This document shows, piece after piece, positions 5,189-39,273 of a DNA stretch of 64,000 nt. How positions within the stretch are numbered: position 1 is the stretch's first letter; each line of letters opens with the position of its first letter. Origin of the DNA: Bacilli bacterium (GTDB taxonomy: Bacteria; Bacillota_I; Bacilli_A; RF39; UBA660); contig JAQVWT010000001.1 in assembly GCA_028709545.1 (NCBI GenBank), positions 658 through 64,657 on the forward strand. Direction: 5' to 3'. Below the pieces are notes generated by a model, which made no database searches, had not been told where the DNA came from, and was given only the letters and a program-made list of their open reading frames with translations. The position numbers were made by a program, and so were the translations under genes.

Positions 5189-5264
5189 GTCCTGTTAGCT
5201 CAGTAGGTAGAGCATTTGACTTTTAATCAAAGGGTCGCGCGTTCGAGTCGCGCACAGGACACCA
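5189..5264 (+). tRNA. tRNA-Lys(TTT); its 3' 50 nt form the prophage attL core
   Basis: Acceptor gtcctgt/acaggac; anticodon loop ctTTTaa; CCA; 3' part repeated at 35973..36026. Confidence 0.85.
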
Positions 5265-5268
5265 TTTA
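5215..5268 (+). repeat. attL core (54 bp, inside tRNA-Lys)
   Basis: Identical to 35973..36026. Confidence 0.85.
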
Positions 5269-5403: not shown

Positions 5404-6456
5404 TCAATCTAATAAATCTATTGTTGCTATTAATTGTTCTTTCGTTTTACTATTATAAATACCATCTGTAATATCTCCACTAACAGAGTGCCCTAATATT
5501 AATTTGCGCGCAAGTCTATTAGCTCCCTTAGAATCCAAATCGGTGCTACAAGTGTGGCGACCGTCATGTGGAGTATGATCTAAATCTAGTTTAATCATTA
5601 ACTCTTTATATTTATCTAAATAATATCTATAATTCATTGCTCTTTTTGAATCATTCCATATTAGATATTCAGATTTGTTATCTTCACTAATTGTAATCCT
5701 ATTTTCAATTAAAGGTATTATTCTTTTATGTATAGGAATTATTCTATTAATACCAGCTTTTGTTTTTGATCCTGCTATTAAATATCTTTTATTTAAATTT
5801 ATTTTATCCAATTTGACATTTAATAATTCGCTAGGCCTTAATCCTGTATATATTAATATTATAACAGTATCCACATAATCCTGCTTTAAATTTTTCCATA
5901 ATATTTCTTTTTCCAATTTGCTGAAAGGCTTATGTTTTGATGATAACTCTTTTTTGCCTAATATCACAAATTCGGCATAATTCATTTTTATTGGTAATTC
6001 TTTTTGTTTAGCAATCTCAAATAATTGATTAAACATAATTTTAACATAGTTCTTAGACGTATAACTCTTATTAATCATATTATCTATTATATCTTGTATA
6101 TCAGATGTTCTGATATCAATAAAACGTTTATTATGCAATTTACTTGATTCATTATAAGCAGCATTATAATTTCCTATGCTAACAATATCTTCTCTTAATT
6201 TCATTTTTTTAAAATGATCGAAAACTCCGGTCAAAGTAATATCTAAGTTATTAAAATCATAAGGATCATTGAGATACATAATTAATGCTCTTTCGGCTAA
6301 CTGTCTTGTTTCCCAATACTTTCTTCCGTCCCATTCAATTATTTCCTTTTTTTGCTTTCCCTGATCATCCCAGTTGTTAGTTATAAAAGCAAAGAACGGG
6401 TTTCTTCTTTTACCAGATAATTTTGATGTTCCTCCAGCTCCGTTTGCTCTTTTCAT
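5404..6456 (-). CDS. int: phage integrase (tyrosine recombinase)
   Basis: TGLRPSEL (R), HDGRHTCST (HxxR), LGHS (H), TDGIY (Y): tyrosine-recombinase catalytic residues; sits next to attL. Confidence 0.85.
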   Translation of the reverse strand: MKRANGAGGTSKLSGKRRNPFFAFITNNWDDQGKQKKEIIEWDGRKYWETRQLAERALIMYLNDPYDFNNLDITLTGVFDHFKKMKLREDIVSIGNYNAAYNESSKLHNKRFIDIRTSDIQDIIDNMINKSYTSKNYVKIMFNQLFEIAKQKELPIKMNYAEFVILGKKELSSKHKPFSKLEKEILWKNLKQDYVDTVIILIYTGLRPSELLNVKLDKINLNKRYLIAGSKTKAGINRIIPIHKRIIPLIENRITISEDNKSEYLIWNDSKRAMNYRYYLDKYKELMIKLDLDHTPHDGRHTCSTDLDSKGANRLARKLILGHSVSGDITDGIYNSKTKEQLIATIDLLD

Positions 6457-6547
6457 GCTTTAAATCACTTCCTTTTTTTATAATTTTATGCTATAATTTT
6501 ATTAGAAAAACTCCTATAATTCTAGCTTGACGGTTATTTTTATATTT

Positions 6548-6586
6548 GTTTTTCTATTTTGATTGCCATTGCAGTGGCGGTCTTTT
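6548..6586 (+). terminator. hairpin plus T10 (plus-strand terminator between int and the HIRAN gene)
   Basis: gccattgcagtggc hairpin then tttttttttt. Confidence 0.35.
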
Positions 6587-6589
6587 TTT

Positions 6590-7204
6590 TTATTTCTTTT
6601 TAATTGCTAAGGTTATGTTACAGCCTCTTGTGGGTTTGTCGTACGTTCCCCCAGTTACTTCGTACTGAAGCGCTCTTATTGATGATGTTTCTTCTTTCTC
6701 AATATATCCTTTTTGATAAAATTCATTAGCAAGTTGTTCTGATAAATATCCTATCTTATAATGTCTTTCTGATGACTCATCATATTTATTATATGTTGTT
6801 AATATTGCTATTACCTCTATTGCATTATCAGAATATTTATTGTTTAAATCAGGACGTATTAAAATATTTGCTTCGTATGAATGTTCCAGTTTAAGTAAAT
6901 ATTCTTGTATTTTACCTTGAGTAACACCAACTATTTTAGTTTCAATTATTTTATGTTCATCTAAAAATTTTTGCTCTTTAATTTTATTTTCTTCTTCTTT
7001 TAAAATAATCTGTTTTTGTCTTTCTTTTAATTTTTCCTCTTCCTCAATTTTTAATTGATTGCTTTTAATTTCTTCAGAATGTATTTTCTTTTTTTTACAA
7101 CGGAAATATATTATTAACCATATTCCTAAAGTAAAATATGTCAATATAATATGACACCAAACACTTCTTTTTTTTAATATTATTTTTTCAAATTCTTGCT
7201 TCAT
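6590..7204 (-). CDS. membrane-anchored HIRAN-domain protein (repressor-operon accessory)
   Basis: N-terminal TM (WCHIILTYFTLGIWLIIYF); coiled-coil linker; C-terminal KIVGVTQ...LIRPDLNNKYSDNAIEV...KIGYLSEQLA resembles the HIRAN signature (GV..Y...L.REP.N.YD.NAI.V...IGY); start overlaps the repressor stop. Confidence 0.45.
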   Translation of the reverse strand: MKQEFEKIILKKRSVWCHIILTYFTLGIWLIIYFRCKKKKIHSEEIKSNQLKIEEEEKLKERQKQIILKEEENKIKEQKFLDEHKIIETKIVGVTQGKIQEYLLKLEHSYEANILIRPDLNNKYSDNAIEVIAILTTYNKYDESSERHYKIGYLSEQLANEFYQKGYIEKEETSSIRALQYEVTGGTYDKPTRGCNITLAIKKK

Positions 7205-10755: not shown

Positions 10756-11574
10756 ATGAAAGCGACATACACTTTCGAAATAAAGCAATTCATAAATCTA
10801 AATTACAAAAACATTAGTACATTAGAATTAACAAATCTAATTAATACCAAATTTAATAGTGAATTTTCAGCCTCACAAATAAAATCATATAAAAGTAACC
10901 ACAAATTAAAAAGCAATTTTAAAGATGTTAAAAACTATAATAAACTTTTTTATGATTATCACATCGACTTTATAAAAAAGCACGCAAAAGGTACTTCAAA
11001 TCAAGATTTAACCAATCTTTTTAACAACTATTTTAAATCTAGATTTACTGTTCAACAAATTAAAGCAGTAAAGCTAAGAAACAAAATAAAGAGTGGTCTA
11101 ACAGGTCACTATCAAAAAGGGAATATACCACTTAATAAAGGTAAAAAATGGGATGAATTTATGTCAAAAGAAGGGCAAGCTAATTCAAGGAAAACTACTT
11201 TTAAAAAAGGTGACAAACCGTTCAATACTGCAAAAATAATGGCAGAAGTAGAACGAGAAGATGGTTATTTATATCGAAAAATTAAAGATACAAACTATCC
11301 AGGATTAAGTAGATACAATTGGAAAGCTGTTCACCATATAATTTATGAAGAAAAACATGGAAAAATCCCCGAAAGTCACAAAATTGTTTTTGCAGATGGT
11401 AATAAAAAAAATTTTGATATCAACAATTTAATTTTAGTTTCTGATAGTCAGTTATTAATTTTAAATAAAAAAGGCTTAATTACTAGTGATCCAGAAATAA
11501 CAAAAATAGGGGTTAATACAGCTAAAGTAATAGATAAAATCAACAATTTAAATAAAAGAAAAAATAAGAGGTGA
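10756..11574 (+). CDS. HNH (HNH_3-type) homing-endonuclease-like protein with duplicated N-terminal motif
   Basis: NWKAVHHIIYEEKHGKIPESHKIVFADGNKKNFDINNLILV matches HNH_3; N-terminal repeats LTNLINTKFNSEFSASQIKSYK and LTNLFNNYFKSRFTVQQIKAVK. Confidence 0.5.
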   Translation: MKATYTFEIKQFINLNYKNISTLELTNLINTKFNSEFSASQIKSYKSNHKLKSNFKDVKNYNKLFYDYHIDFIKKHAKGTSNQDLTNLFNNYFKSRFTVQQIKAVKLRNKIKSGLTGHYQKGNIPLNKGKKWDEFMSKEGQANSRKTTFKKGDKPFNTAKIMAEVEREDGYLYRKIKDTNYPGLSRYNWKAVHHIIYEEKHGKIPESHKIVFADGNKKNFDINNLILVSDSQLLILNKKGLITSDPEITKIGVNTAKVIDKINNLNKRKNKR

Positions 11575-12071: not shown

Positions 12072-12929
12072 ATGGAAACAAAGATTTTAATTGATAATTT
12101 AGAAGAATATATTTTAGAATTACAGGACAATGAGCTTGCTAAAAAAAGTTATTCTAAGTACAAATATGATATTAGTAAATTCATTAAATTTTTAGGAGAT
12201 AAACCTAGATTTATAAAAAATGATTATCTTGAATATATTGGTTCACTAATAAAAAAAGAGTATAAAATTAGTTCGGTCAATTCTTATATTGTTTCCATTA
12301 ATAAATATCTAATTTATTTAAAATATGAAAATTTAAAAATTAAAACTAAAAAAGTTCAAAGGAAACAATCAGTTGAAAATGTTATATCAATAATCGATTA
12401 TAAAAGATTATTAAGAATATCTAAAAAGAATGAATATCTCGATACTTATTGGATATTAAGGTTAATAGCGGGAACTGGAATTAGAGTGTCCGAAGTACAA
12501 TATTTCACAATTGAATCATTATCAGCAGCCAAAGACAAAGATAATGTAGTTATGGTTAATAATAAAGGAAAATGGCGCGAAGTCAGCATATCTACCGAAT
12601 TAATTAGAAACTTGCTTAAACACGGTCAGTCAAATGGAATAAAAAGTGGATATCTATTTTTAAAAAGAAATGATCCTACGAAACCAATAACGCCAAATGC
12701 AATTTGGAAAAGGATACAAAAAATAGCAGGTATAGCCAAAATTAATAAAAAATATGCACACCCACATTCGCTAAGGCATTTATTCGCTAAGACATATTTA
12801 TCGGTTAATCCCGGAGAGTATATGGCACTAGCTGATTTACTTGGTCATGAAGATGTTAGAACAACTGCAATCTATACGCAGGAGTCAAGAAAAGAAAAAA
12901 AAGCTAAAGTGACAGAATTAAAATTATAA
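12072..12929 (+). CDS. second tyrosine recombinase (XerC/XerD-like)
   Basis: AGTGIRVSEV (R), HPHSLRHLFA (HxxR), LLGHED (H), TAIYTQ (Y); 285 aa, Xer-sized. Confidence 0.7.
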   Translation: METKILIDNLEEYILELQDNELAKKSYSKYKYDISKFIKFLGDKPRFIKNDYLEYIGSLIKKEYKISSVNSYIVSINKYLIYLKYENLKIKTKKVQRKQSVENVISIIDYKRLLRISKKNEYLDTYWILRLIAGTGIRVSEVQYFTIESLSAAKDKDNVVMVNNKGKWREVSISTELIRNLLKHGQSNGIKSGYLFLKRNDPTKPITPNAIWKRIQKIAGIAKINKKYAHPHSLRHLFAKTYLSVNPGEYMALADLLGHEDVRTTAIYTQESRKEKKAKVTELKL

Positions 12930-14459: not shown

Positions 14460-14906
14460 ATGGTGGAGACTGACGAATTAACAATAGCAACAGCATATGA
14501 TAAATTACTCGCAACTAATAACAAAATAGAATTATTAGAAAGATTACGACAAATTAATTCCGAGCCGCTAAAAGCAGCTAAACTAAAAGAAATATTAACT
14601 AATGGTAGTAGGAATAATAATGAACAACTGTTTTATAAAATATTAAGAGAAGATAAAAACTCAATAGAGCTAAGAGAATTGTATCAAAAAAAAGCCTCTG
14701 ATGAAGCTTACATCTTAGAAGAGATTAATAGAATGAGTTTATCCGCTCCAACTATAGCTATTGTTTTCTTAAAAGACATCCAAAAGTTTAGTTGGAAAGA
14801 AATCGCAAAAAAGCTATATGATTATTATAGCGAAAGGCAAATAAGAAATTTTTATTACGAATACAAAGAAAAGTTAAAATTAACTAATAAAATATACGGT
14901 AAATAA
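14460..14906 (+). CDS. ArpU/RinA-like late transcriptional activator (sigma region-4-like HTH)
   Basis: C-terminal FSWKEIAKKLYDYYSERQIRNFY HTH; sits just upstream of the packaging module, as ArpU-family activators do. Confidence 0.45.
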   Translation: MVETDELTIATAYDKLLATNNKIELLERLRQINSEPLKAAKLKEILTNGSRNNNEQLFYKILREDKNSIELRELYQKKASDEAYILEEINRMSLSAPTIAIVFLKDIQKFSWKEIAKKLYDYYSERQIRNFYYEYKEKLKLTNKIYGK

Positions 14907-14931
14907 TAAAAAAATCAACAGTCAAGCAAAG

Positions 14932-14960
14932 TTGCCAGTTTTTGCCAGTTTAGCTATGCT
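14932..14960 (+). promoter_or_regulatory. candidate sigma70 promoter (TTGCCA-N17-TATGCT) at the start of the GC-rich non-coding segment
   Basis: Hexamers and spacing read directly from the sequence. Confidence 0.3.
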
Positions 14961-15428
14961 ACAATAACTATGATGAGATACTTATACATAGATCGATATA
15001 AGATTTCATTACCCAAAACAATTGGACATAAATTAAATCTTTCTTAGGAACAGTTTATTCCATCAAGTAGTGACTGATAGACTACTTGATATACTAGGTT
15101 CAAAAACCGTACTGTCTAATATGAGCATATAGAATAATCCTATATCAGGTAGAATTCAGGCGAATATGATTAAATGCTGAAAAACAGCCTATGTTTTATG
15201 AGTGGTGGTGTATGGGAAACACGGTTAAAGATAACTGATAAGCAAGGATATCCATTGAGCTTATCCCAAAGGTGTAAGCCCTTATCTACTCAAACAAAAA
15301 AATATGCTCACAGAGGTTCTGGCCGAGTAAATCCGCTAGCGAGCAATCAATTACGCAACCTCAATAATAGGCATGATGAGTGGAGCTAGCCGTCCACCAA
15401 CTTAAAACTCTTTAATTAGAGTTTTTTT
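14961..15428 (+). ncRNA. candidate structured non-coding RNA of unknown class (~470 nt)
   Basis: 533-bp gap between tightly packed genes; GC content visibly above the ~28% background; the only ORF (15174..15389) is R/S/G-rich and atypical for this genome; promoter upstream and strong terminator at the 3' end; many local inverted repeats. Confidence 0.35.
15404..15428 (+). terminator. rho-independent terminator
   Basis: aaaactct-ttaatt-agagtttt hairpin followed by T7; the HNH gene RBS follows immediately. Confidence 0.6.
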
Positions 15429-15439
15429 CATGAGGTAAT

Positions 15440-15769
15440 ATGGGGAATAAAAATAAAATAATTAGATTACAACTTATTCAAATTTATGGAGAAATTTGTA
15501 TGCTCGGAGAACCACTATCTATTGAAAATTATATTACTTTACACCATTTAATAAAAAAAGAACACAAAGGAGCTACCAGCATTAAGAATGGTGCTCTGTT
15601 AAGCAAAATTATGCATGAATATTTACATTACATAGAATGTTGGTATATTGGCCATTATCACTATATTAATGATTATTTAAGATATTACAAAGAAACCGAA
15701 GATCCCAGTGAAAAAGATAAAATGAATTGTTATATCAAGAAATTAAACAAAATAAATAGAAAGGTTTGA
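15440..15769 (+). CDS. HNH endonuclease (packaging-associated type)
   Basis: CMLGEP...TLHHLIKKEHKGATSIKNGALLSKIMHEYLH is an HNH motif. Confidence 0.55.
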   Translation: MGNKNKIIRLQLIQIYGEICMLGEPLSIENYITLHHLIKKEHKGATSIKNGALLSKIMHEYLHYIECWYIGHYHYINDYLRYYKETEDPSEKDKMNCYIKKLNKINRKV

Positions 15770-15773
15770 TCGA

Positions 15774-16694
15774 ATGAAACATATATGTTTTTATTATTAT
15801 CATATTAACATTATTGGCGGCGTTGAAATAGCGATACTGAATCTAATAAAATTATTAAGTAAAGAGTATAAAATAACTATAGCTTATACCAAGCAAGACA
15901 GTAGCTTAGACATGTTGTTAAGATTAAATAAATATGCTGATATAGTAAATGTCAAATATCAAAAAATCGCATGTGATACAGCTGTTTTCTGCTCTATTTA
16001 TTGTGAAACTCCAAAAAATATAAAAGCTAATAAATATGTTAGATGGTTGCATGGCAATCTTAAAGAAATAGGTTATAATTTAACTAAAGAAGATTTTATA
16101 AATGACTACGTAACGGTAGGTAAGGAATGCCAAAAACAATTAAAAGAAGTTACAGAAGTGGAATCGAATTTAATATATAATGAACTTGATCCTGAAATAC
16201 ATAAAAAAGCTAAAGAAACAATAAATATAATAAAAAAACCTTTAACATTAGTCACAGTATCAAGAATTTCCATAGAAAAAGGTTTTGAAAGAATGTTAAA
16301 ACTCGCCAGATTATTAAAAGAAAAAAAAATAGATTATATTTGGTATATAATCGGATGCAGTTATGACAAGGCTTATGAGGCAAAAATTAAAGATACTAGT
16401 CCGAAAGAATTTATCTATTTAGGAAAATTGGATAATCCGTTCCCATATATGAAAGAATCGGATTTTTTAGTGCAATTAAGCAGTTATGAAAGCCAAGGGT
16501 TATCGGTAGTCGAATCGTTAGTTTTAGGAACACCAGTAATAGTAACTAAATGGAAAGCAGTTAATGAAGTCGTTACAGATAAAGTAAATGGCTATATATT
16601 AGATATGGATTTTAATGATATTCCTGAACTTCAAAAATTAGTGTTCAGATATGAATATAAAAGTAATTATGAAAGGTGGAAAGAAATATTATGA
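15774..16694 (+). CDS. GT-B fold glycosyltransferase (family 1/4-like)
   Basis: N-terminal IIGGVEIAILNL; C-terminal E-x7-E motif ESQGLSVVESLVLGTPVI typical of retaining GT4 enzymes. Confidence 0.6.
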   Translation: MKHICFYYYHINIIGGVEIAILNLIKLLSKEYKITIAYTKQDSSLDMLLRLNKYADIVNVKYQKIACDTAVFCSIYCETPKNIKANKYVRWLHGNLKEIGYNLTKEDFINDYVTVGKECQKQLKEVTEVESNLIYNELDPEIHKKAKETINIIKKPLTLVTVSRISIEKGFERMLKLARLLKEKKIDYIWYIIGCSYDKAYEAKIKDTSPKEFIYLGKLDNPFPYMKESDFLVQLSSYESQGLSVVESLVLGTPVIVTKWKAVNEVVTDKVNGYILDMDFNDIPELQKLVFRYEYKSNYERWKEIL

Positions 16695-16942
16695 AAGAAG
16701 TATTAATTAGATCGGTAAGTAATTATCATGATATTGAATTATCAAAAGAAAAGAAGTCAAAAACAAAAGTGCTTAGAAATGGTAAAGAGATAGAAACATA
16801 TGAAATACAACCAAATGATGAGTATTTAGTATCAAGAGCTAGAGCAGAAGTAATAGTTGGAAAAAACAAAGCCATAATTATTGATATGCCTAAGCAAGAA
16901 GAAACTAAAACAAAATTAATAAAGAAAGTAGTGAAGAAATAA
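16676..16942 (+). CDS. hypothetical protein
   Basis: ORF track; overlaps the GT stop. Confidence 0.3.
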   Translation: MERNIMKEVLIRSVSNYHDIELSKEKKSKTKVLRNGKEIETYEIQPNDEYLVSRARAEVIVGKNKAIIIDMPKQEETKTKLIKKVVKK

Positions 16943-17018
16943 TGCAAGGAATAATAACCACTTTAATAATAGTTTTTGGTTTATGTTATATATCAACAAT
17001 ATCTAATAGTAAAAGAAA

Positions 17019-17336
17019 ATGACACTAGAAAGAATTAAACAACTTATTAGAGAAGATAAAATTATTTTATTTTATAAAAGTAAAGCTTGGCGTATTAAAA
17101 AAAATGAAATAAGAAAAAGAGACGGATACGAATGCCAAGAATGTAAGAAACAAGGAGGGTTAACAACTATACAACAAGCTAAACTAGATGTGCATCATGT
17201 TAAAGGACTAAAGGATTATCCGGAACTAGCGTTTGTTAATAGTAATTTAGTAACTGTATGTGTTAATCATCACAATATATTAGATGGAAGAATTAAACCA
17301 AAGAAAAATAAATTTATTAATGAGGAAAGATGGTAA
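17019..17336 (+). CDS. HNH endonuclease
   Basis: CQECKK...HHVKGLKDYPELAFVNSNLVTVCVNHHNILDG: CxxC plus HH and N...H. Confidence 0.6.
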   Translation: MTLERIKQLIREDKIILFYKSKAWRIKKNEIRKRDGYECQECKKQGGLTTIQQAKLDVHHVKGLKDYPELAFVNSNLVTVCVNHHNILDGRIKPKKNKFINEERW

Positions 17337-17545
17337 ATATGAAATTAAAAAAATATCAGTTAGTTAGTATATTAGAACAATGTAAATTGAGAGGATTAAC
17401 AACCATAGATGAGATACTAAATGAATTAAAAGTATTTAAAGATATGGATGTTATAGTCGAATCATCGAAAGATAAAGAAATTAAAAGATATAAAAAATCA
17501 GGCGTTATTGATTCTCCAAACATAAGAAGAATTCTTAATAAATGA
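17330..17545 (+). CDS. hypothetical protein
   Basis: ORF track. Confidence 0.3.
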   Translation: MVNMKLKKYQLVSILEQCKLRGLTTIDEILNELKVFKDMDVIVESSKDKEIKRYKKSGVIDSPNIRRILNK

Positions 17546-17654: not shown

Positions 17655-18008
17655 ATGGCTAAAAAGAAAAGGTTATATCCTAAAAAATTATATGATCAAA
17701 TTAAAACCGATCTATTAAATCAATTAGAGTTAAATGGGGTGGCCGGCAAACATTATGAAAATATGATTGAAGATTATATGCAGTTTTGGCACACCAAAAT
17801 GTTGTTGCAAGAAGATATTAAATTACGAGGAGTAAATGTCGAATACAATAATGGCGGTGGTCAAAGCGGCTTTAAAAGAAATGATAGTGTTACCGATTTA
17901 GTTAAAGTTAATTCCCAAATGTTAAAAATATTATCAGAGTTAAATTTAAAACCATCTAAGGAAGGTGGTAAGGATGACCCCAAACCAACCGAAGACGATT
18001 ATTATTAA
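17655..18008 (+). CDS. terS: terminase small subunit (P27-family-like)
   Basis: ~117 aa, immediately upstream of terL; MAKKKRLYPKKLYD...NNGGGQSGFKRNDSV pattern. Confidence 0.5.
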   Translation: MAKKKRLYPKKLYDQIKTDLLNQLELNGVAGKHYENMIEDYMQFWHTKMLLQEDIKLRGVNVEYNNGGGQSGFKRNDSVTDLVKVNSQMLKILSELNLKPSKEGGKDDPKPTEDDYY

Positions 18009-19671
18009 AGAAGTAGAAGAATACTTAAATTGGTGTTATGAAAATCCAAATAAAATAAATAAAAAAAGATGGTTGCTGATAAAAAATATAGTTGAACCTA
18101 CATTAAGGAGAGCTGATATTTTTTTTGATGAAGAAAAATATTATAAATGTATTGATTATTGTGAAAAATGGTATTATCCATTATTTCCGTATCAAAAATT
18201 TATATATGCTTTTGTTTTTATGTTTAAAAATAAAAATTTTTCTTTTGAAAATAAGATCCCATTATTTCATAAATTTATAATTGAAATGGGTCGAGGAAAT
18301 GGTAAAGATGGATTTATCGCTCCTTTATGTAATTTTTTGCAAACTCCGATGTACGGAATTAAAAATTATAATATTGATATAGTAGCAACTAGTGAAAGTC
18401 AATCTAAAGACACTTTTTTGGTAGTTCATGATATGATGACTTCTAATATTAAAAAAATGAAAAAACTATTCTATATAAGTTTAGAGTTGATAATGAACTT
18501 GTTTACAAAATCGAGATTAAGATACAATACTTCAAACGCAAAAACTAAGGACGGCAAAAAAGTTGGTGCTATAGTATTTAACGAATATCACGCTTATGAA
18601 AATTACGAACAAATATCAGTTTTTGAAAGTGCGGGAGGTAAAGTGCCTCATTTTAGGATATTTATAATAACTACTCAAGGTAACGTTCGAGAAGGTCCGT
18701 TAGATGATGAATTAGAATATTGTGCCTCTATATTAAACGGTGAAGATAACAATCTTGGGGTTTTTCCTTTTTTGTGCGAATTAGATGATCTTAAAGAAGT
18801 TGATAACCATGAGATGTGGGTAAAGGCTAACCCTAGTATAGAATATATGCCTAATTTACTTGAAGTTATTAAACAACAATATCAAGAGCAAAAAGAAAGG
18901 CCGCAAAAAAGATTTGAGTTTTTGACAAAAAGAATGAATGTTCCGTCAAGAGATGAAACTACTTGTGTAGCAAGTTGGGAAAATATTCTTGCCACCAACC
19001 AAGAAATTCCTGATTTAAAAGGAATGAGTTGTTTAGGGGGAATTGACTATGCAAGTATGAATGATTTTTGTGCTGTTGGTTTATTATTTAAGCAAAACGG
19101 CAAACGTTACTGGATGCATCATTCTTTCATTTGCAGCAACAGTATTCATTTAAAAATGGTAAATAAAAAATTAAAAATTGATTTAGCTGTTGAAAAAGGC
19201 TTAGCAACAATGGTCAATACAAATAGTATTAACCCAGAAGTAGTTGTTAGTTGGTTTGTTCAGCAATCCAAAAAATATAATATTTTAAAAATTGCTTGCG
19301 ATGATTACCGATTTGCATTATTAAAAGAAGCTTTTGAAAAAGAAGGATTTTATGAAAAATGTAAAAAATACCCTAATGGAAGAATAATAGTTGTTAGGAG
19401 TGGACCTATTACTCATAATCGAGTAGCTACTATTATTGATGATATGTTTTATAATCAAACTTTAGTTTATGGTGATGATATGTTGATGCGCTGGTACACA
19501 AATAATACTGCTGTTAAAGTTGACGGTAAGGGAAATAAAACATATGAAAAAATAGAATATCAAACAAGAAAAAATGATGGTTTCATGGCATTAGTTCATG
19601 TTATGAGTATAGATAAAGAATTACCAACTATAAAAAGTAGTGGGAAATTAATGAGGCCTATAATAGGCTAG
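17974..19671 (+). CDS. terL: terminase large subunit
   Basis: ~565 aa; ATPase N-domain then nuclease domain; position between terS and portal; start set at the ATG with RBS GAAGGTGG (track GTG at 17965). Confidence 0.75.
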   Translation: MTPNQPKTIIIKEVEEYLNWCYENPNKINKKRWLLIKNIVEPTLRRADIFFDEEKYYKCIDYCEKWYYPLFPYQKFIYAFVFMFKNKNFSFENKIPLFHKFIIEMGRGNGKDGFIAPLCNFLQTPMYGIKNYNIDIVATSESQSKDTFLVVHDMMTSNIKKMKKLFYISLELIMNLFTKSRLRYNTSNAKTKDGKKVGAIVFNEYHAYENYEQISVFESAGGKVPHFRIFIITTQGNVREGPLDDELEYCASILNGEDNNLGVFPFLCELDDLKEVDNHEMWVKANPSIEYMPNLLEVIKQQYQEQKERPQKRFEFLTKRMNVPSRDETTCVASWENILATNQEIPDLKGMSCLGGIDYASMNDFCAVGLLFKQNGKRYWMHHSFICSNSIHLKMVNKKLKIDLAVEKGLATMVNTNSINPEVVVSWFVQQSKKYNILKIACDDYRFALLKEAFEKEGFYEKCKKYPNGRIIVVRSGPITHNRVATIIDDMFYNQTLVYGDDMLMRWYTNNTAVKVDGKGNKTYEKIEYQTRKNDGFMALVHVMSIDKELPTIKSSGKLMRPIIG

Positions 19672-25312: not shown

Positions 25313-27466
25313 ATGGCAAAGAAAAAGGGAATAGATTTAAGTTTTTCGATTGCTGAAAGTGAAGCTTTAACTTCAATAAGAAATTTAACATCGCAAGTCA
25401 CAACTATGAATAAAGAACTTAATTTAACCAATACTGTGCTAAGGAGTGATAGTGCTTCAATTGATACTTATAAAAACAAATTAGATGTTCTATCAAGAGA
25501 AAAAGAAGTGTTAAGTAATAGAGTTAGAGTTGCAAACGACACTTTAGAAAAAGCTAAATCTACTTATGGAGAAAACTCTACAGAAGTTCAAAAATGGCAA
25601 AATCGTTTACTTGATGCCCAAATTGCACAACAAAAAGTTGAAAATCAGATTGAAGATACAACTAAAGCAATTGATGAGTATGGGAAGGAAACTGTAGAAG
25701 CTTCTGAAAAAACATCAATATTTGGAGATGTTTTAAAAGCTAATTTAGCAAGTGATTTAATAATGAGCGGTGTTAAATCAATAGTTAATGGGGTTAAAGC
25801 TATTGGAAAAGTGGTTGGCGATGTTATTGGTGATAGCATAAAAGCGTATGCAGATTATGAACAATTAATTGGTGGCGTTGAAACTTTATTTAAAGATAGT
25901 GCTGATATAGTAAGCGCTAATGCTCAGCAAGCGTATAGAACAGCCGGAGTGTCTGCTAATAAGTATATGGAACAAGCAACAAGTTTTAGTGCTACATTAC
26001 TTCAAGGATTAGATGGTGATACTGCTCAAGCAGCTAAATATGCTGATTTAGCAATAACAGATATGGCAGATAATGCTAATAAAATGGGAACAGATATCTC
26101 TTCAATCCAAAATGCTTATCAAGGCTTTGCTAAAGACAACTATACAATGCTAGATAACCTTAAGCTTGGATATGGGGGAACTGCTGGGGAAATGGCTCGA
26201 CTGATTAATGATAGTGGAGTAATGGGCGATAGTTTTAAAGCTACAGCGCAAAATGTTAAAGAGATCCCTTTTAATAAAATGATTCAAGCAATTCATGATA
26301 CACAAGTTGAAATGGATATTACTGGAACAACAGCTAAAGAGGCAAGCGAAACAATTAGTGGAAGCCTTAATTCAGTTAAAGCTTCTTGGGAAAACGTTTT
26401 ATCTGCGTTAGCTAGTGGGAACGATGAGATGTTAACTGATTCCATTGACGGAATTTTAGAAGGAATAGGGAATTTGGTAACAAATGTGGTAGCAATATTG
26501 CCTAATATTATAGAAGGTTTAGGGAAACTTGTTGAGGGAGTAATTTCACAATTACCGTCATTAATTAAAAAAATATTACCTACATTATTAAATACTGTAA
26601 AATCATTGATTAACACTTTAATAACAATTCTTCCAGAACTGATACCAGTGGTAATTGAAATGATGAATTATCTAGTGAAAATAATACTTGAAAATTTACC
26701 ATTAATTCTCGAAGCTGGTATTCAGATTTTGTTATCTTTAATTGAAGGAATAGCAGATGCATTACCCGATTTAATACCCGCAATAGTAGAGGCTATATTA
26801 CTAATCGTGGATACATTGCTTAATAATATAGATTTAATAATAACAGCCGGAGTTGACATTTTAGTCGGATTAATAACAGGGATTATCTATGCAATTCCTA
26901 AACTAATTCAGTATGTTCCTCAAATCATAATTAAACTGGTTTCTGTTTTGATCAGTCAAGTACCTAGACTTTTAACGGTAGGGGTAGAAATAATTGCTAA
27001 AGTAATAGCTGGAATTGTTGGGAATATAGGAAAAATGTGGACAATTGGGAAAGATATGGTTGCAGGAATATGGGAAGGAATATCTAACTCATTCACTTGG
27101 ATTAAAAATAAAATTAGTGGTTGGATAGGAAATGTTACTAGTTTTATTAAAAAATTATTTGGAATAAAATCCCCATCTACTTTAATGAAAAATGAAGTTG
27201 GGCTAAACCTCGGATTAGGAGTAGCAGAAGGAATAACTGATTCAGTTGGGGCAGTTAATTCAGCTATGAGTGGACTGCAAGATTCTGTTATATCACAAGT
27301 TGAACCTTCAATTAATATTGGTGATGCAACTGCAGATGGTATTGAATTAGGAGTTGGCCGTCCGCTATACATTCAAATTGCGGAATTTAACAATAACAGA
27401 GAACAAGATATTGAAACCTTAGCTGAAGAACTCGCTTATTATTTAAATCAAAAGGAGTTGTCTTAA
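25313..27466 (+). CDS. tail tape measure protein
   Basis: 717 aa; coiled-coil N-part and long hydrophobic/Gly-rich repeats. Confidence 0.8.
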   Translation: MAKKKGIDLSFSIAESEALTSIRNLTSQVTTMNKELNLTNTVLRSDSASIDTYKNKLDVLSREKEVLSNRVRVANDTLEKAKSTYGENSTEVQKWQNRLLDAQIAQQKVENQIEDTTKAIDEYGKETVEASEKTSIFGDVLKANLASDLIMSGVKSIVNGVKAIGKVVGDVIGDSIKAYADYEQLIGGVETLFKDSADIVSANAQQAYRTAGVSANKYMEQATSFSATLLQGLDGDTAQAAKYADLAITDMADNANKMGTDISSIQNAYQGFAKDNYTMLDNLKLGYGGTAGEMARLINDSGVMGDSFKATAQNVKEIPFNKMIQAIHDTQVEMDITGTTAKEASETISGSLNSVKASWENVLSALASGNDEMLTDSIDGILEGIGNLVTNVVAILPNIIEGLGKLVEGVISQLPSLIKKILPTLLNTVKSLINTLITILPELIPVVIEMMNYLVKIILENLPLILEAGIQILLSLIEGIADALPDLIPAIVEAILLIVDTLLNNIDLIITAGVDILVGLITGIIYAIPKLIQYVPQIIIKLVSVLISQVPRLLTVGVEIIAKVIAGIVGNIGKMWTIGKDMVAGIWEGISNSFTWIKNKISGWIGNVTSFIKKLFGIKSPSTLMKNEVGLNLGLGVAEGITDSVGAVNSAMSGLQDSVISQVEPSINIGDATADGIELGVGRPLYIQIAEFNNNREQDIETLAEELAYYLNQKELS

Positions 27467-28161
27467 TGGAAAATTATTTTTATATAAACGATGTAGATAG
27501 TAGAACAGTAGGGGTGAAATGTGGAACATTTCCTCCTATTATTTTCCCGAAAAAGAGAATTGAAACAATTATTATTGAAGGAAGAGATGGAACTTTACAT
27601 CAAACTGATAATTGTTATGATAGCTATGTTTGGTCTATAGAGTGTTACTCGGAAGATATAGATATTGAAAAAATAGAGTTGTTTTTAAGAAATGCTAAAA
27701 CTTTAAGATTAAGCAGTAATCCTGAAAAAGTCTACGATATTACGATTAAAAATCAAATTGATTTAAATATTATCGCAGAATATTGGAGAAATTTTATTAT
27801 TACTTTTGAAATTCAGCCGATAGTCAAAAGTTTAACAGAGCAAATAGTTGATATAGAAGAGACATCAATTGAAATAGTAGTAGGTGGAACATTTGAAACC
27901 AAACCAACAATAGAATTAACGGGCTCAGGAGATTTTACAATATCAATAAACAGTAATAACATTATAATTGGAAATTTAAACGAAGAAACAATCGTAATAG
28001 ATACTGATTTAAGGCTAGCAGTAATTGATAATGTCAATGCTATGAATAAAATTAATGCTAATTTTAATAATATAAAATTAAAGGTTGGCATAAATACAAT
28101 AGCTATAGTTGGAGAATACGAAAATTTTAAAATTAAATATAAGAGGTGTTATTTATGTTAA
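27466..28161 (+). CDS. distal tail protein (Dit)
   Basis: 231 aa immediately after TMP. Confidence 0.5.
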   Translation: MENYFYINDVDSRTVGVKCGTFPPIIFPKKRIETIIIEGRDGTLHQTDNCYDSYVWSIECYSEDIDIEKIELFLRNAKTLRLSSNPEKVYDITIKNQIDLNIIAEYWRNFIITFEIQPIVKSLTEQIVDIEETSIEIVVGGTFETKPTIELTGSGDFTISINSNNIIIGNLNEETIVIDTDLRLAVIDNVNAMNKINANFNNIKLKVGINTIAIVGEYENFKIKYKRCYLC

Positions 28162-34859: not shown

Positions 34860-34949
34860 GTAATAGCGACTAACCTTAACTGGTTAGTTCTTTTTTTGTG
34901 TAAGAAATGTTATTACATACATAATATATTAAAGGAGGATAATACAAAA

Positions 34950-35465
34950 TTGATAAATAAGTTTGCAAAAAGTATTAAACATGTTTATAATATAATCAAT
35001 AGAGGTTGTGATAAAAAAATGAAAGCTATAGATATTGCAAATTGGTTTTTAAGTATGAATAATTATATGCAAAATATAACTGATACTGAATATATAACTA
35101 ATATGAAACTACAAAAATTATTATATTATGCTCAAGGATTACATTTATCTAAGTATAGTAAACCATTATTTAAAGAAAAAATATTGGCATGGGAACATGG
35201 ACCAGTAGTTAGAGAAGTATATGATATATTTAAGTCATATGGCGGTGATGGTATTACATACACTGGAACGCAAGTTGAGTTGTCGCAAGACACAGAATTT
35301 CTTTTAGAAAAAGTCTATGAACTATATGGACAATATTCTGCATGGAAATTAAGAAATATGACTCATTCAGAAAAACCTTGGCAAACCACACCAAGAAATG
35401 TTGAAATAAAAAAAGAATTAATAAAAGATTATTTTAATGAAACAAAACTGTGCGAATTGCAATAA
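34950..35465 (+). CDS. Panacea-domain (DUF4065, SocA/PanA-like) protein, putative antitoxin
   Basis: MKLQKLLYYAQGLHLSKYSKPLFKEKILAWEHGPVVREVYDIFKSYG fits the DUF4065 core; start moved to the TTG 11 nt after RBS AAAGGAGG (track start 34896). Confidence 0.5.
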   Translation: MINKFAKSIKHVYNIINRGCDKKMKAIDIANWFLSMNNYMQNITDTEYITNMKLQKLLYYAQGLHLSKYSKPLFKEKILAWEHGPVVREVYDIFKSYGGDGITYTGTQVELSQDTEFLLEKVYELYGQYSAWKLRNMTHSEKPWQTTPRNVEIKKELIKDYFNETKLCELQ

Positions 35466-35972: not shown

Positions 35973-36026
35973 TTTGACTTTTAATCAAAGGGTCGCGCGT
36001 TCGAGTCGCGCACAGGACACCATTTA
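35973..36026 (+). repeat. attR core (partial tRNA-Lys 3' copy)
   Basis: Identical to 5215..5268; no tRNA 5' half upstream. Confidence 0.85.
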
Positions 36027-37511: not shown

Positions 37512-38069
37512 TTACACTTCAGACTTAAGAAAATCTATACAAACAGCTGTAATAATAATCTGCTTAGATTTATCTTCTTGATCACAAGTAGTTAAAATTA
37601 AAATATTATTAAAAACATTTTTATTAATACTTATTTCCCCTGTCTTATTTTGTCTTTCTATATTAATAATTTTATAATTAAAAATATAGTTATTATAATT
37701 TATATATATTAAATCATCTTTTTCTAATAAATATAAATCTTTAAAAAAAGATACTTTACTATTACCCGAATGTGCTGCTAATATTAATAAACCTTTTTCT
37801 TGATTTGGCATTATAGATGGGTATAATATCTCAATTGATTTATTAACGTTATTATCTAGGCTATCATAAGTAGATAAACTTTTATCTAATGAAATTTTTG
37901 GGATTTTAATTTTAGCATAAAAAGTTTTGGTTTTAATTATTTGAGTATTTATTATTTCTTGGTGCTTATAAGTAAAAGCTTGTTTATTTTTAGCGATGTT
38001 GCTAGAAGTATTTAATAATAGTAAAAAAAAGATAATAAATATTTTATACTTTTCTTTTTTTCTTGTCAT
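37512..38069 (-). CDS. sortase-family transpeptidase
   Basis: N-terminal TM; LILAAHSG (His) and ILILTTCDQ (TLxTC catalytic Cys motif). Confidence 0.55.
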   Translation of the reverse strand: MTRKKEKYKIFIIFFLLLLNTSSNIAKNKQAFTYKHQEIINTQIIKTKTFYAKIKIPKISLDKSLSTYDSLDNNVNKSIEILYPSIMPNQEKGLLILAAHSGNSKVSFFKDLYLLEKDDLIYINYNNYIFNYKIINIERQNKTGEISINKNVFNNILILTTCDQEDKSKQIIITAVCIDFLKSEV

Positions 38070-39273
38070 AATAAATTATCTTCGGGATATCATATTCTTT
38101 AACCATATATTTAAAATCAAATACTTTACTATATGTTACTGGGACTTTAACTTGAATTAAATTATTATTTAAATCTTGATCAATAGTTATATCATTATCA
38201 TATTCCGTTATATCATTATCAATAGGTTGAATTACTTCTTTTTCATCTTTTATTATAAAATGATGGTTTAAATTATCTTGATTGATTTCAAAAAAAAGTT
38301 TATTTTGCGTGTTATCAAGAATATAATATTGTCCATAGTTAAGTGGCACACTATTTTCGCCAAAATTATCGTTCATAATAATTTCGTCAACTAAATTATT
38401 ATTATTATCAAAAATTAGATAACTAAGACTTTCATCATTATTAAAACCTTCAACTGTTATTTTTCCACCAGGTACGATGATATCTATTGTTTTTTCGTTA
38501 TTAGATAATTTACCTGGCGACATTGTATCTAAATATTCACTGACATATATAAGCGGATCCTGAGAATAAAGTTCATATTTTTTATATAATTTAACTTTAT
38601 AATTTCCTGGCCTGTTTGCAGTTATTATTAATTTGTTATCTTTAATCAGTAAGTCTAAACCCTCTGTTTTGGCAACTTCAAACTGATTAATAACATTATT
38701 TTTATCATCACTTTCTAAAGTTTCACCTATCTTTATTTCGTTTAAATCTTTTTCAAAGCTGGGAATCAAAAAATGATTATCAATAAGTGTTTCTAATTCC
38801 CTTAGTTCATTTTCATACTTAATAACTCTGTTTCCATTGTAAATATCAGTAAAATAGATATCCCAATCTAGGCGCAAGTGTCTCCAAATAAGAAGCTGAG
38901 TTATTATATACCACTTAATATCTGAGTGATCCTGTTCTTCGGCTTGATAATTGTATCCATAATAAGCATATAGTTTTACTTTTTCCCATTGTTCATTTGT
39001 AATTACTGTGGTTTGAGAAACATCATTTGTTCCAGCAGCTGGTTTATTATCAAGCTTCATACCCGGTTCTATGCTATAAACCCAGTGGTTATCGCTATTT
39101 CTTCTTAAAACATCACCATAAAAATGCCATTTTAAAACCCAAGGTGTTTGTTTTCGAAAATAGATACCGTCAATCCTTTCTTTAACTACTATAAGATCTT
39201 GGGTATTATTTGCATGGCCCACCTTAGGAATAAACAATATTCCAATAATTAATATAATTAATATTTTTTTCAT
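38044..39273 (-). CDS. secreted protein (signal peptide) upstream of and overlapping the sortase; TED-like Q motif
   Basis: Signal peptide MKKILIILIIGILFIPKVGHA; no Cys in the mature protein; ITQLLIW resembles the ΦQxΦΦW thioester-domain motif; no LPXTG. Confidence 0.35.
   Translation of the reverse strand: MKKILIILIIGILFIPKVGHANNTQDLIVVKERIDGIYFRKQTPWVLKWHFYGDVLRRNSDNHWVYSIEPGMKLDNKPAAGTNDVSQTTVITNEQWEKVKLYAYYGYNYQAEEQDHSDIKWYIITQLLIWRHLRLDWDIYFTDIYNGNRVIKYENELRELETLIDNHFLIPSFEKDLNEIKIGETLESDDKNNVINQFEVAKTEGLDLLIKDNKLIITANRPGNYKVKLYKKYELYSQDPLIYVSEYLDTMSPGKLSNNEKTIDIIVPGGKITVEGFNNDESLSYLIFDNNNNLVDEIIMNDNFGENSVPLNYGQYYILDNTQNKLFFEINQDNLNHHFIIKDEKEVIQPIDNDITEYDNDITIDQDLNNNLIQVKVPVTYSKVFDFKYMVKEYDIPKIIYYDKKKRKV

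Follow-up and report, generated by a model that had tools for sequence, protein, structure and literature searches.

A 64,000-nucleotide stretch of low-GC DNA (about 27% GC) from an uncultured Bacilli-class metagenome-assembled genome (MAG; contig JAQVWT010000001.1), the whole of which is called the window here, carries a prophage. Upstream of the terminase genes of this prophage lies the gene for a 306-residue glycosyltransferase (GT), followed by a small open reading frame (ORF). The GT has its real partner in the small ORF, and not in the two HNH endonuclease genes on either side of the pair (HNH1 and HNH2). In many relatives the two proteins are fused into one chain, which suggests that they are very probably subunits of one enzyme. 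The GT-small pair is a recurrent modular feature of phage head and packaging operons, and it may serve to place a glycan on the virion, a tentative reading that is weighed below against its rivals.

The glycosyltransferase and its small partner

The GT adds a new member to an enzyme family that is very well known, and the HNH proteins nearby are ordinary. It matches Pfam Glycos_transf_1 (PF00534; E=5e-21, 75.3 bits against a cut-off of 26.4) and Glyco_trans_1_4 (PF13692; E=4e-16, 60.1 bits against a cut-off of 27), and it stays far under the cut-off of every NCBIfam equivalog model. The AlphaFold2 (AF2) model, with a predicted local distance difference test (pLDDT) score of 95.8, displays the GT-B fold of two Rossmann domains, and its best structural matches are retaining GT4 enzymes. 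The E-x7-E motif, E239...E247, is invariant among 58 homologs, and so are G15, G16 and E18 (GG-x-E), H93, R164 and K169. Since these catalytic and donor-binding residues are invariant, the GT is very probably active, and a retaining transfer of sugar from a nucleotide-sugar donor is predicted for it. The family comprises about 70 clusters of 45–64% identity, all of about 300–315 residues, and its members are encoded on 346 IMG/VR contigs. A first-pass annotation of the window had described the gene product as a 306-residue GT-B glycosyltransferase with an E-x7-E motif, and the Pfam match, the modeled fold and the conservation of the motif bear this out.

The stop codon of the GT gene overlaps the ATG of the small ORF (nt 16691) as ATGA. 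The Arg-Trp codons of the GT supply a Shine-Dalgarno sequence, AGGTGG, and the ATG lies 10 nt downstream of it. Ordinary translational coupling appears to be the simpler reading of this overlap. A programmed frameshift as the link between the GT and the small ORF was considered and rejected; the overlap contains no slippery heptamer and has a good Shine-Dalgarno sequence and an ATG instead. Two starts are available to the small ORF, GTG at nt 16676 for a protein of 88 residues and ATG at nt 16691 for a protein of 83 residues, the latter being more likely.

In the close clade the GT gene is always followed by an ORF of 50–88 residues, the start of which overlaps the GT end. The encoded small proteins are homologs of one another and share the invariant residues D19 and R56. 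A hidden Markov model (HMM) of the small protein also matches the GT ORF itself, at its last ~45 residues (the C-terminus), in about 40 of the 85 viral and metagenome loci and in about 30 of the 70 genome loci; in three cases (L089, P0068 and P0069) the small domain is at the GT N-terminus, and 33 of the 85 loci have it as a separate ORF directly downstream of the GT. The GT and the small protein of the window, when concatenated, are colinear with the natural fusions, which add a linker of 10–15 residues. This Rosetta-stone link is the basis for regarding the two proteins as subunits of one enzyme. The first-pass annotation had mentioned the small ORF in passing; the ORF is real and conserved.

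A cultured example is the rumen Butyrivibrio phage Arawn. It encodes a fused GT4 and small protein (MN882550 nt 26427–27506, equivalent to L001 nt 5941–7020), in which the small domain occupies residues 315–354 (E=6e-7). The gene lies beside SSB and near a 'CMP glycosidase', and it is not discussed in the original Arawn paper. Butyrivibrio phage Idris carries the fused form too.

Larger fusions occur as well. A GT2 domain (Glycos_transf_2), the GT4 domain and a C-terminal small domain are joined in proteins of 554–671 residues at L020, L034, L078 and L084 and at about 20 genome loci (e.g. L190, L208 and L225); some of the triple-fusion loci are from MAGs assigned to Bacteroidota, Spirochaetota and Absconditabacterales. 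The occurrence of these triple fusions points to a glycan of more than one sugar. At L038 and L084, a GT with a fused small domain is followed directly by a second, separate small-domain ORF, so the small domain may work in multiple copies or roles.

The AF2 model of the small protein has a mean pLDDT of 73.6, with about 85 in the core, and shows a beta-beta-(hairpin)-beta-alpha-beta arrangement followed by a disordered Lys/Thr-rich tail. The window protein itself matches neither phrog_933, which PHROG annotates as a family of unknown function, nor PF23843 (DUF7210), though 10 of 20 aligned homologs match phrog_933 (best E=6.6e-9) and 2 of 20 match PF23843 (E=2.6e-5). Against the HMM of the homologs it scores E=2e-18, although it is itself among the sequences from which the HMM was built. 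A literature search found no paper mentioning DUF7210. The profile search for the small domain yielded 748 cluster representatives, and the best 150 of the 748 are almost all stand-alone proteins of 50–135 residues. P0316, a protein of 505 residues matched by the same profile, is a TPR protein and was discarded as a false positive. The partial copy in Bacilli bacterium isolate STCSWMC_198 (L172) is 100% identical to the protein of the window.

The pair in head and packaging operons

The gene context was compared in a set of 68 de-duplicated loci; the limited seed sets did not resolve the rest of the per-locus maps, and the 'GT2' labels on small ORFs in these maps are unreliable, having been propagated via fusion proteins. 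The first two sizeable genes downstream encode mostly the terminase large subunit (TerL), the terminase small subunit (TerS), portal, head protease, head morphogenesis protein and major head protein. The two genes upstream include those of soluble GT2 enzymes, other GTs, nucleotide-sugar epimerase and TerL, and DNA methyltransferases are frequent upstream neighbours of the GT relatives. The 'GtrB-like' PHROG matches are soluble GT2 catalytic domains of ~205 residues. No flippase or membrane-partner family is among the commonest neighbour families.

The order of the genes varies among these many unrelated phages. The arrangement GT, small protein, TerS and TerL is found at about 25 loci, which have small terminases of the P27, Sf6 and GP3 types and at least four types of head module. 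TerL is followed by (GT2), the GT4-small fusion and portal at 8 loci, and portal by GT2 and the GT4-small fusion at 4–5 loci. An extremely prevalent lineage has the order major capsid protein (MCP), GT4, small protein, connectors and tail tube, and its small proteins are present in hundreds of index blocks. The MAG hosts of the GT relatives are mostly gut and rumen Clostridia and Bacilli, and also Muribaculaceae, Prevotella, Spirochaetota and Absconditabacterales, with the caveat that the binning of phage contigs can err. A GT in the packaging region had seemed unusual at the first pass; with relatives on so many IMG/VR contigs and with neighbours that are mostly head and packaging genes, it is not. 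Nothing on a GT upstream of the terminase as a module was found in the searchable literature, and as far as that literature shows, the module of a GT4, with or without a GT2, and a DUF7210-like domain in phage head and packaging operons is undescribed.

The HNH genes and the prophage

The headline of the first-pass annotation was a GT sandwiched between two HNH genes. The sandwich is limited to the window phage and its near-identical contigs (L002 and L172), and the GT in other phage lineages has no flanking HNHs. Beyond the near-identical contigs, HNH1, GT and small protein were not seen as a repeated unit in otherwise unrelated genomes. Thus the two HNH genes are incidental neighbours of the GT and not parts of its module.

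HNH2 goes with the terminase whether or not a GT is present. Besides phrog_119 (Table 1) it matches eleven other HNH PHROGs, it reaches 20.8 bits with Pfam HNH, just under the cut-off of 21.4, and its sequence contains both CxxC pairs and the HH...N...H residues. The terminase region was compared in 75 viral contigs related to the window TerL with 35–81% identity. The order HNH2-TerS-TerL is kept in nearly all of those that have enough upstream sequence. On that strand the GT and HNH1 are missing from all 75, one of which has the small protein alone. Because HNH2 stands beside TerS in relatives without the GT, it is an HK97-gp74-type packaging HNH that belongs to the terminase module; because none of the 75 relatives carries the GT or HNH1, the HNH1-GT-small block is an accessory insertion in the lineage of the window phage. 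The closest packaging-module relative (L097, IMGVR_UViG_3300012949_000009), with a TerL of 78% identity, has no GT and no HNH1 and encodes an 87-residue homolog of the small protein (nt 1687–1950). This homolog has a Lys-rich tail and occupies the same site as in the window, directly upstream of HNH2. A TM2-like membrane protein and a metallophosphoesterase are encoded upstream of it.

HNH1 is probably a divergent HNH in its own right; it belongs to the region ahead of the terminase and is not part of the GT module. By itself it scores 18.1 bits with Pfam HNH, under the cut-off of 21.4, and matches no PHROG. In the alignment of its family, all five members of which match Pfam HNH, residues H35, H36, G44, N50, H59 and E66 are invariant, and the family profile matches the HNH domains of IscB (E=5.9e-5), group II intron maturase, Cas9 and McrA. 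HNH1 would therefore be a divergent HNH that has lost most of the zinc-binding cysteines. Its homologs are found 1–4 genes upstream of the GT at L010, L023, L068, L076 and L081, with RusA or other genes in between. The proposal that both HNHs are packaging-associated thus holds for HNH2 and is unsupported for the Cys-poor HNH1. The count of three HNH nucleases in one phage was right, as HNH1 (weak alone, supported by its family profile), HNH2 and an HNH_3 protein all belong to the same prophage.

The features are collected in Table 1. The ORF coordinates of the first-pass annotation were all confirmed on the plus strand, as was the position of the GT upstream of the terminase, and its phage of 31 kb corresponds to a prophage of ~30.8 kb inserted in tRNA-Lys(ttt). 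The ends of the prophage, attL and attR, are a 54-bp exact direct repeat (nt 5215–5268 and nt 35973–36026) consisting of the 3′ part of tRNA-Lys(ttt), and tRNA gene arrays are present on both flanks.

Table 1. Features of the prophage, in nucleotide positions of the window
Feature	Position	Strand	Matches and remarks
Integrase	5404–6456	-	Prophage
HNH_3 protein	10756–11574		PF13392 E=1e-13, phrog_1891 E=4e-65; prophage early region
Second tyrosine recombinase, XerC-like	12072–12929		phrog_1 E=8e-35; inside early region, besides the integrase
148-residue ORF	14460–14906		Upstream of the non-coding gap
Non-coding gap	14907–15439	+	GC-rich island and terminal hairpin with T-run
HNH1, divergent small HNH-domain protein, 109 residues	15440–15769	+	Stop 4 nt before the GT start
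GT, GT4-family GT-B retaining-type glycosyltransferase, 306 residues	15774–16694	+	Short N-terminal acceptor domain
Small partner protein	16676/16691–16942	+	DUF7210/phrog_933-like
HNH2, packaging-associated HNH, HK97 gp74 type, ~105 residues	17019–17336	+	phrog_119 E=2e-19
71-residue ORF	17330–17545	+	Between HNH2 and TerS; also called in the near-identical contig L002
TerS, P27/Terminase_4 type	17655–18008	+	PF05119 E=2.6e-8, phrog_5110 E=2e-33
TerL	17965–19671	+	TerL_nuclease E=2e-19, TerL_ATPase E=1e-8, phrog_9 E=2e-123

The second tyrosine recombinase might serve in dimer resolution or act as an invertase. The 71-residue ORF has no match in the Pfam, PHROG and NCBIfam scans. The endolysin of the prophage is a Peptidase_M15, and the host therefore has peptidoglycan. 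Directly after it, at the right prophage end, lies a gene for an antitoxin-like SocA/Panacea-domain protein (nt 34896–35465), which may be a toxin-antitoxin or defence moron. Just beyond the prophage, the minus strand encodes a host protein that contains a thioester (TED) domain (nt 38044–39273); the TED domain is typical of Gram-positive surface adhesins.

The non-coding gap of 534 bp in front of HNH1 contains a GC-rich island between nt 15200 and 15400, with 39–48% GC against the background of about 27%. It ends in a hairpin (AAAACTCT/AGAGTTTT) and a T-run at about nt 15405–15431, 9 nt before the HNH1 start. A structured RNA in the gap was considered and rejected, for a spurious snoRNA is all that Rfam gives at the gathering threshold or at E≤1, and the folding z-scores are weak (-2.3 for 476 nt, -0.7 for 251 nt and also -1.4). 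DNA resembling the gap was found neither in the fetched loci nor by an exact IMG/VR search. The gap may be a leader or terminator of a late operon similar to lambda PR′-tR′, a cos-proximal region or the remnant of a gene.

The acceptor of the sugar

The reading that we favour, with a little less than an even chance, is that a late-expressed GT with a targeting subunit glycosylates a component of the virion in the manner of mycobacteriophage Che8. The GT and the small protein would form a two-subunit enzyme made alongside the packaging and head proteins in lytic growth. The GT4 subunit would move the sugar from its nucleotide-sugar donor, with retention, and the small subunit, separate or fused, would most likely steer the enzyme to an acceptor on the assembling virion, such as the procapsid, the capsid or the packaging complex. 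Alternatively, the small subunit itself may be the glycosylated, virion-associated product. By analogy with Che8, the outcome would be a glycosylated phage particle. We infer that expression is late, that the acceptor is the virion and that the small domain has a targeting role. The first-pass annotation had listed modification of phage proteins among its options, and it is this option that the fusion link and the head and packaging context favour. The hosts of the relatives span Firmicutes, Bacteroidota, Spirochaetota and Absconditabacterales, which argues against an acceptor specific to one type of cell wall.

A more specific proposal, which we hold with greater doubt, is that a gpFI-like docking domain brings the GT4, often together with a GT2, to the assembling head or the packaging complex, so that many gut and rumen phages leave the cell glycan-coated. 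Lambda gpFI is a DNA packaging chaperone with a structure of the C-terminal domain available (2LSM). Its gene lies behind the major capsid gene, as does the GT-small pair in the abundant phage lineage mentioned above. The likeness of the small protein to gpFI is a lead and not a classification; sequence homology by hhalign is not significant (probability 0.15%, E=0.39).

Several observations weigh against a glycosylated virion. The GT fold fits lipid-linked, protein, small-molecule and polymer acceptors alike. The MCP of the window and its counterpart in the GT-less L097 are colinear (78% identity, no indels), and in this comparison the capsid protein has no dedicated acceptor tail or extension. 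The small protein occurs without the GT in L097 and in P0233, where it stands behind an HNH/P-loop gene, and this implies a role of its own. Late co-transcription is suggested by the spacing and orientation of the genes, and neither a promoter nor a terminator was established. The 148-residue ORF was considered as a late activator and rejected, since it has no match in Pfam, PHROG, NCBIfam, PADLOC or PDB and does not resemble the Arawn sigma factor. The fused GT of Arawn lies among replication-type genes, outside the head operon. In addition, common ancestry within lineages, or a site permissive for insertion, may account in part for the conserved position of the GT.

It is unlikely that the GT instead acts in the cytoplasm on the precursor of an envelope polymer, such as teichoic acid, capsule or an S-layer glycan, and thereby changes the receptor for superinfection exclusion or keeps the progeny off debris. 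Such a role would suit a host with peptidoglycan, an accessory cassette and the GT4 family; furthermore, the Joint Genome Institute (JGI) label on some homologs is 'glycosyltransferase involved in cell wall biosynthesis', and the PHROGs category is 'moron, auxiliary metabolic gene and host takeover'. Conversion genes, however, usually lie near att or the integrase and have their own promoter. The GT has the orientation of the packaging genes and is tightly packed among them, starting 4 nt behind HNH1 and sharing nucleotides with the small ORF, and its relatives lie between TerL and portal or behind the capsid gene, positions atypical of conversion genes. The constant association, fused or paired, with a small domain that is soluble and is also found alone heading packaging operons, the host phyla with very different envelopes and the absence of flippase or membrane partners among the commonest neighbours also speak against the envelope. 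Thus the lysogenic conversion or receptor masking suggested at the first pass is disfavoured. Similarly improbable is another intracellular target, be it the Lys/Thr/Ser-rich tail of the small protein, the packaging machinery, a host protein or a metabolite such as a target in defence or takeover, with no glycan-coated particle as the result. The small partners often have T/S/K-rich disordered tails and are found independently of the GT, but many of them, namely the 50-residue and the fused forms, are tailless. The likeness of the GT to PF20706, 'GT4 in conflict systems', is weak (E=0.065, with precomputed matches for three distant homologs) and at 12.6 bits falls far under the cut-off of 26, and the known defence-system models of PADLOC match neither the GT nor the small protein nor HNH1. 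The extra GT2 enzymes, moreover, suggest a built-up glycan and not a single regulatory sugar.

The proximity of the terminase and HNH genes invites two further explanations. Glycosylation of the phage DNA against restriction as in T4, perhaps by an enzyme tethered to the packaging motor, would agree with this location and with the frequent upstream DNA methyltransferases in relatives, yet we consider it hardly probable at all. The early-region ORFs scanned (DnaD-like loader, helicase loader, HNH_3, XerC-like recombinase and HD hydrolase, with several small ORFs lacking a match) include no dCMP/dUMP hydroxymethylase, thymidylate-synthase-like or base-hypermodification gene. The phage, a temperate one, is replicated as host DNA, and the context of most relatives is one of structural genes and not of nucleotide metabolism. 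The structure comparison that had been proposed for the GT counts against the DNA modification suggested alongside it, as the DNA GTs score below ordinary GT4 enzymes; as to the class of acceptor, the fold does not discriminate. Very unlikely, too, is a mobile cassette in which both HNHs are homing endonucleases that moved the GT to its place and the sandwich is a functional unit. HNH1 abuts the GT, and the absence of both from the 75 terminase-module relatives gives the block the look of an insertion. HNH2, however, stands beside TerS in the GT-less relatives and is outside the insertion; the GT-small pair occurs elsewhere without an HNH on either side, RusA or other genes lie between the homologs of HNH1 and the GT, and in L097 the small protein occupies the same site with neither the GT nor HNH1 present.

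If virions are indeed glycosylated by such enzymes, sugar coats would be common in gut and rumen viromes and not a peculiarity of mycobacteriophages. Nothing on capsid glycosylation beyond actinobacteriophages and archaeal viruses was found in the searchable literature. The consequences would bear on the immune recognition of phages, mucus binding, the design of phage therapy and the reading of 'auxiliary' GT genes. The comparison also corrects the habit of labelling such genes 'cell wall biosynthesis' or 'moron'. Should the docking proposal be true, the system would be distinct from that of the actinobacteriophages and the first virion-glycosylation system with a dedicated targeting module, covering temperate and lytic phages of Firmicutes, Bacteroidota and even bacteria of the candidate phyla radiation. 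The GT-small fusion is a clonable handle, and Arawn is a tractable cultured model.

Comparison with known systems

HNH2 resembles the HK97 gp74-type HNH endonuclease, which has a role in packaging (PMC13595911), in its length of ~105 residues, its place directly upstream of TerS and TerL in a P27/HK97-type module and the conservation of this position in relatives. HNH1 differs, being a member of another, Cys-poor HNH family. The T4 alpha- and beta-glucosyltransferases of DNA and the 5-hydroxycytosine GT of phage HY126 share with the GT of the window the GT-B fold and the phage origin. Bacterial retaining GT4 enzymes (PimA, BshA, PglH/WlaC, HepE, TarM and GtfA) are longer, the window GT having 306 residues with an N-domain of about 145; the window enzyme further differs from them in being encoded by a phage, in a packaging operon, and in being paired or fused with a DUF7210-like domain.

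The Gtr systems and TarP of S. aureus are likewise prophage-borne glycosyltransferases. Enzymes of this type have a GT-A or GT-C fold, work with membrane partners, are made in the lysogen and are in most cases encoded near the attachment site. The GT of the window, by contrast, is a soluble GT-B enzyme of the GT4 family in a late/packaging cluster, and a membrane partner is absent from the commonest neighbours.

The closest systems are those of mycobacteriophages, which encode GTs of their own that add glycans to capsid and tail-tube proteins (PMC12363180). In Che8 (gp110), Corndog (gp38) and Myrna, glycans are carried on the capsid and the tail tube and provide shielding from antibodies (PMC12363180). 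The GTs of cluster F1 mycobacteriophages lie near the 3′ end of the genome, which is next to the terminase on a circular map (PMC11256854). The mycobacteriophage and window enzymes are alike as phage-encoded cytoplasmic GTs, sometimes several per phage, with the position beside the terminase shared in cluster F1; the window phage has a single GT4. To our knowledge, no small fused or paired targeting domain has been described for the mycobacteriophage GTs. The hosts are Actinobacteria in the one case and gut and rumen Firmicutes and Bacteroidota in the other. The likeness drawn here is one of genomic analogy, between glycans that are seen in the mycobacteriophages and a system that is known here from its genes alone.

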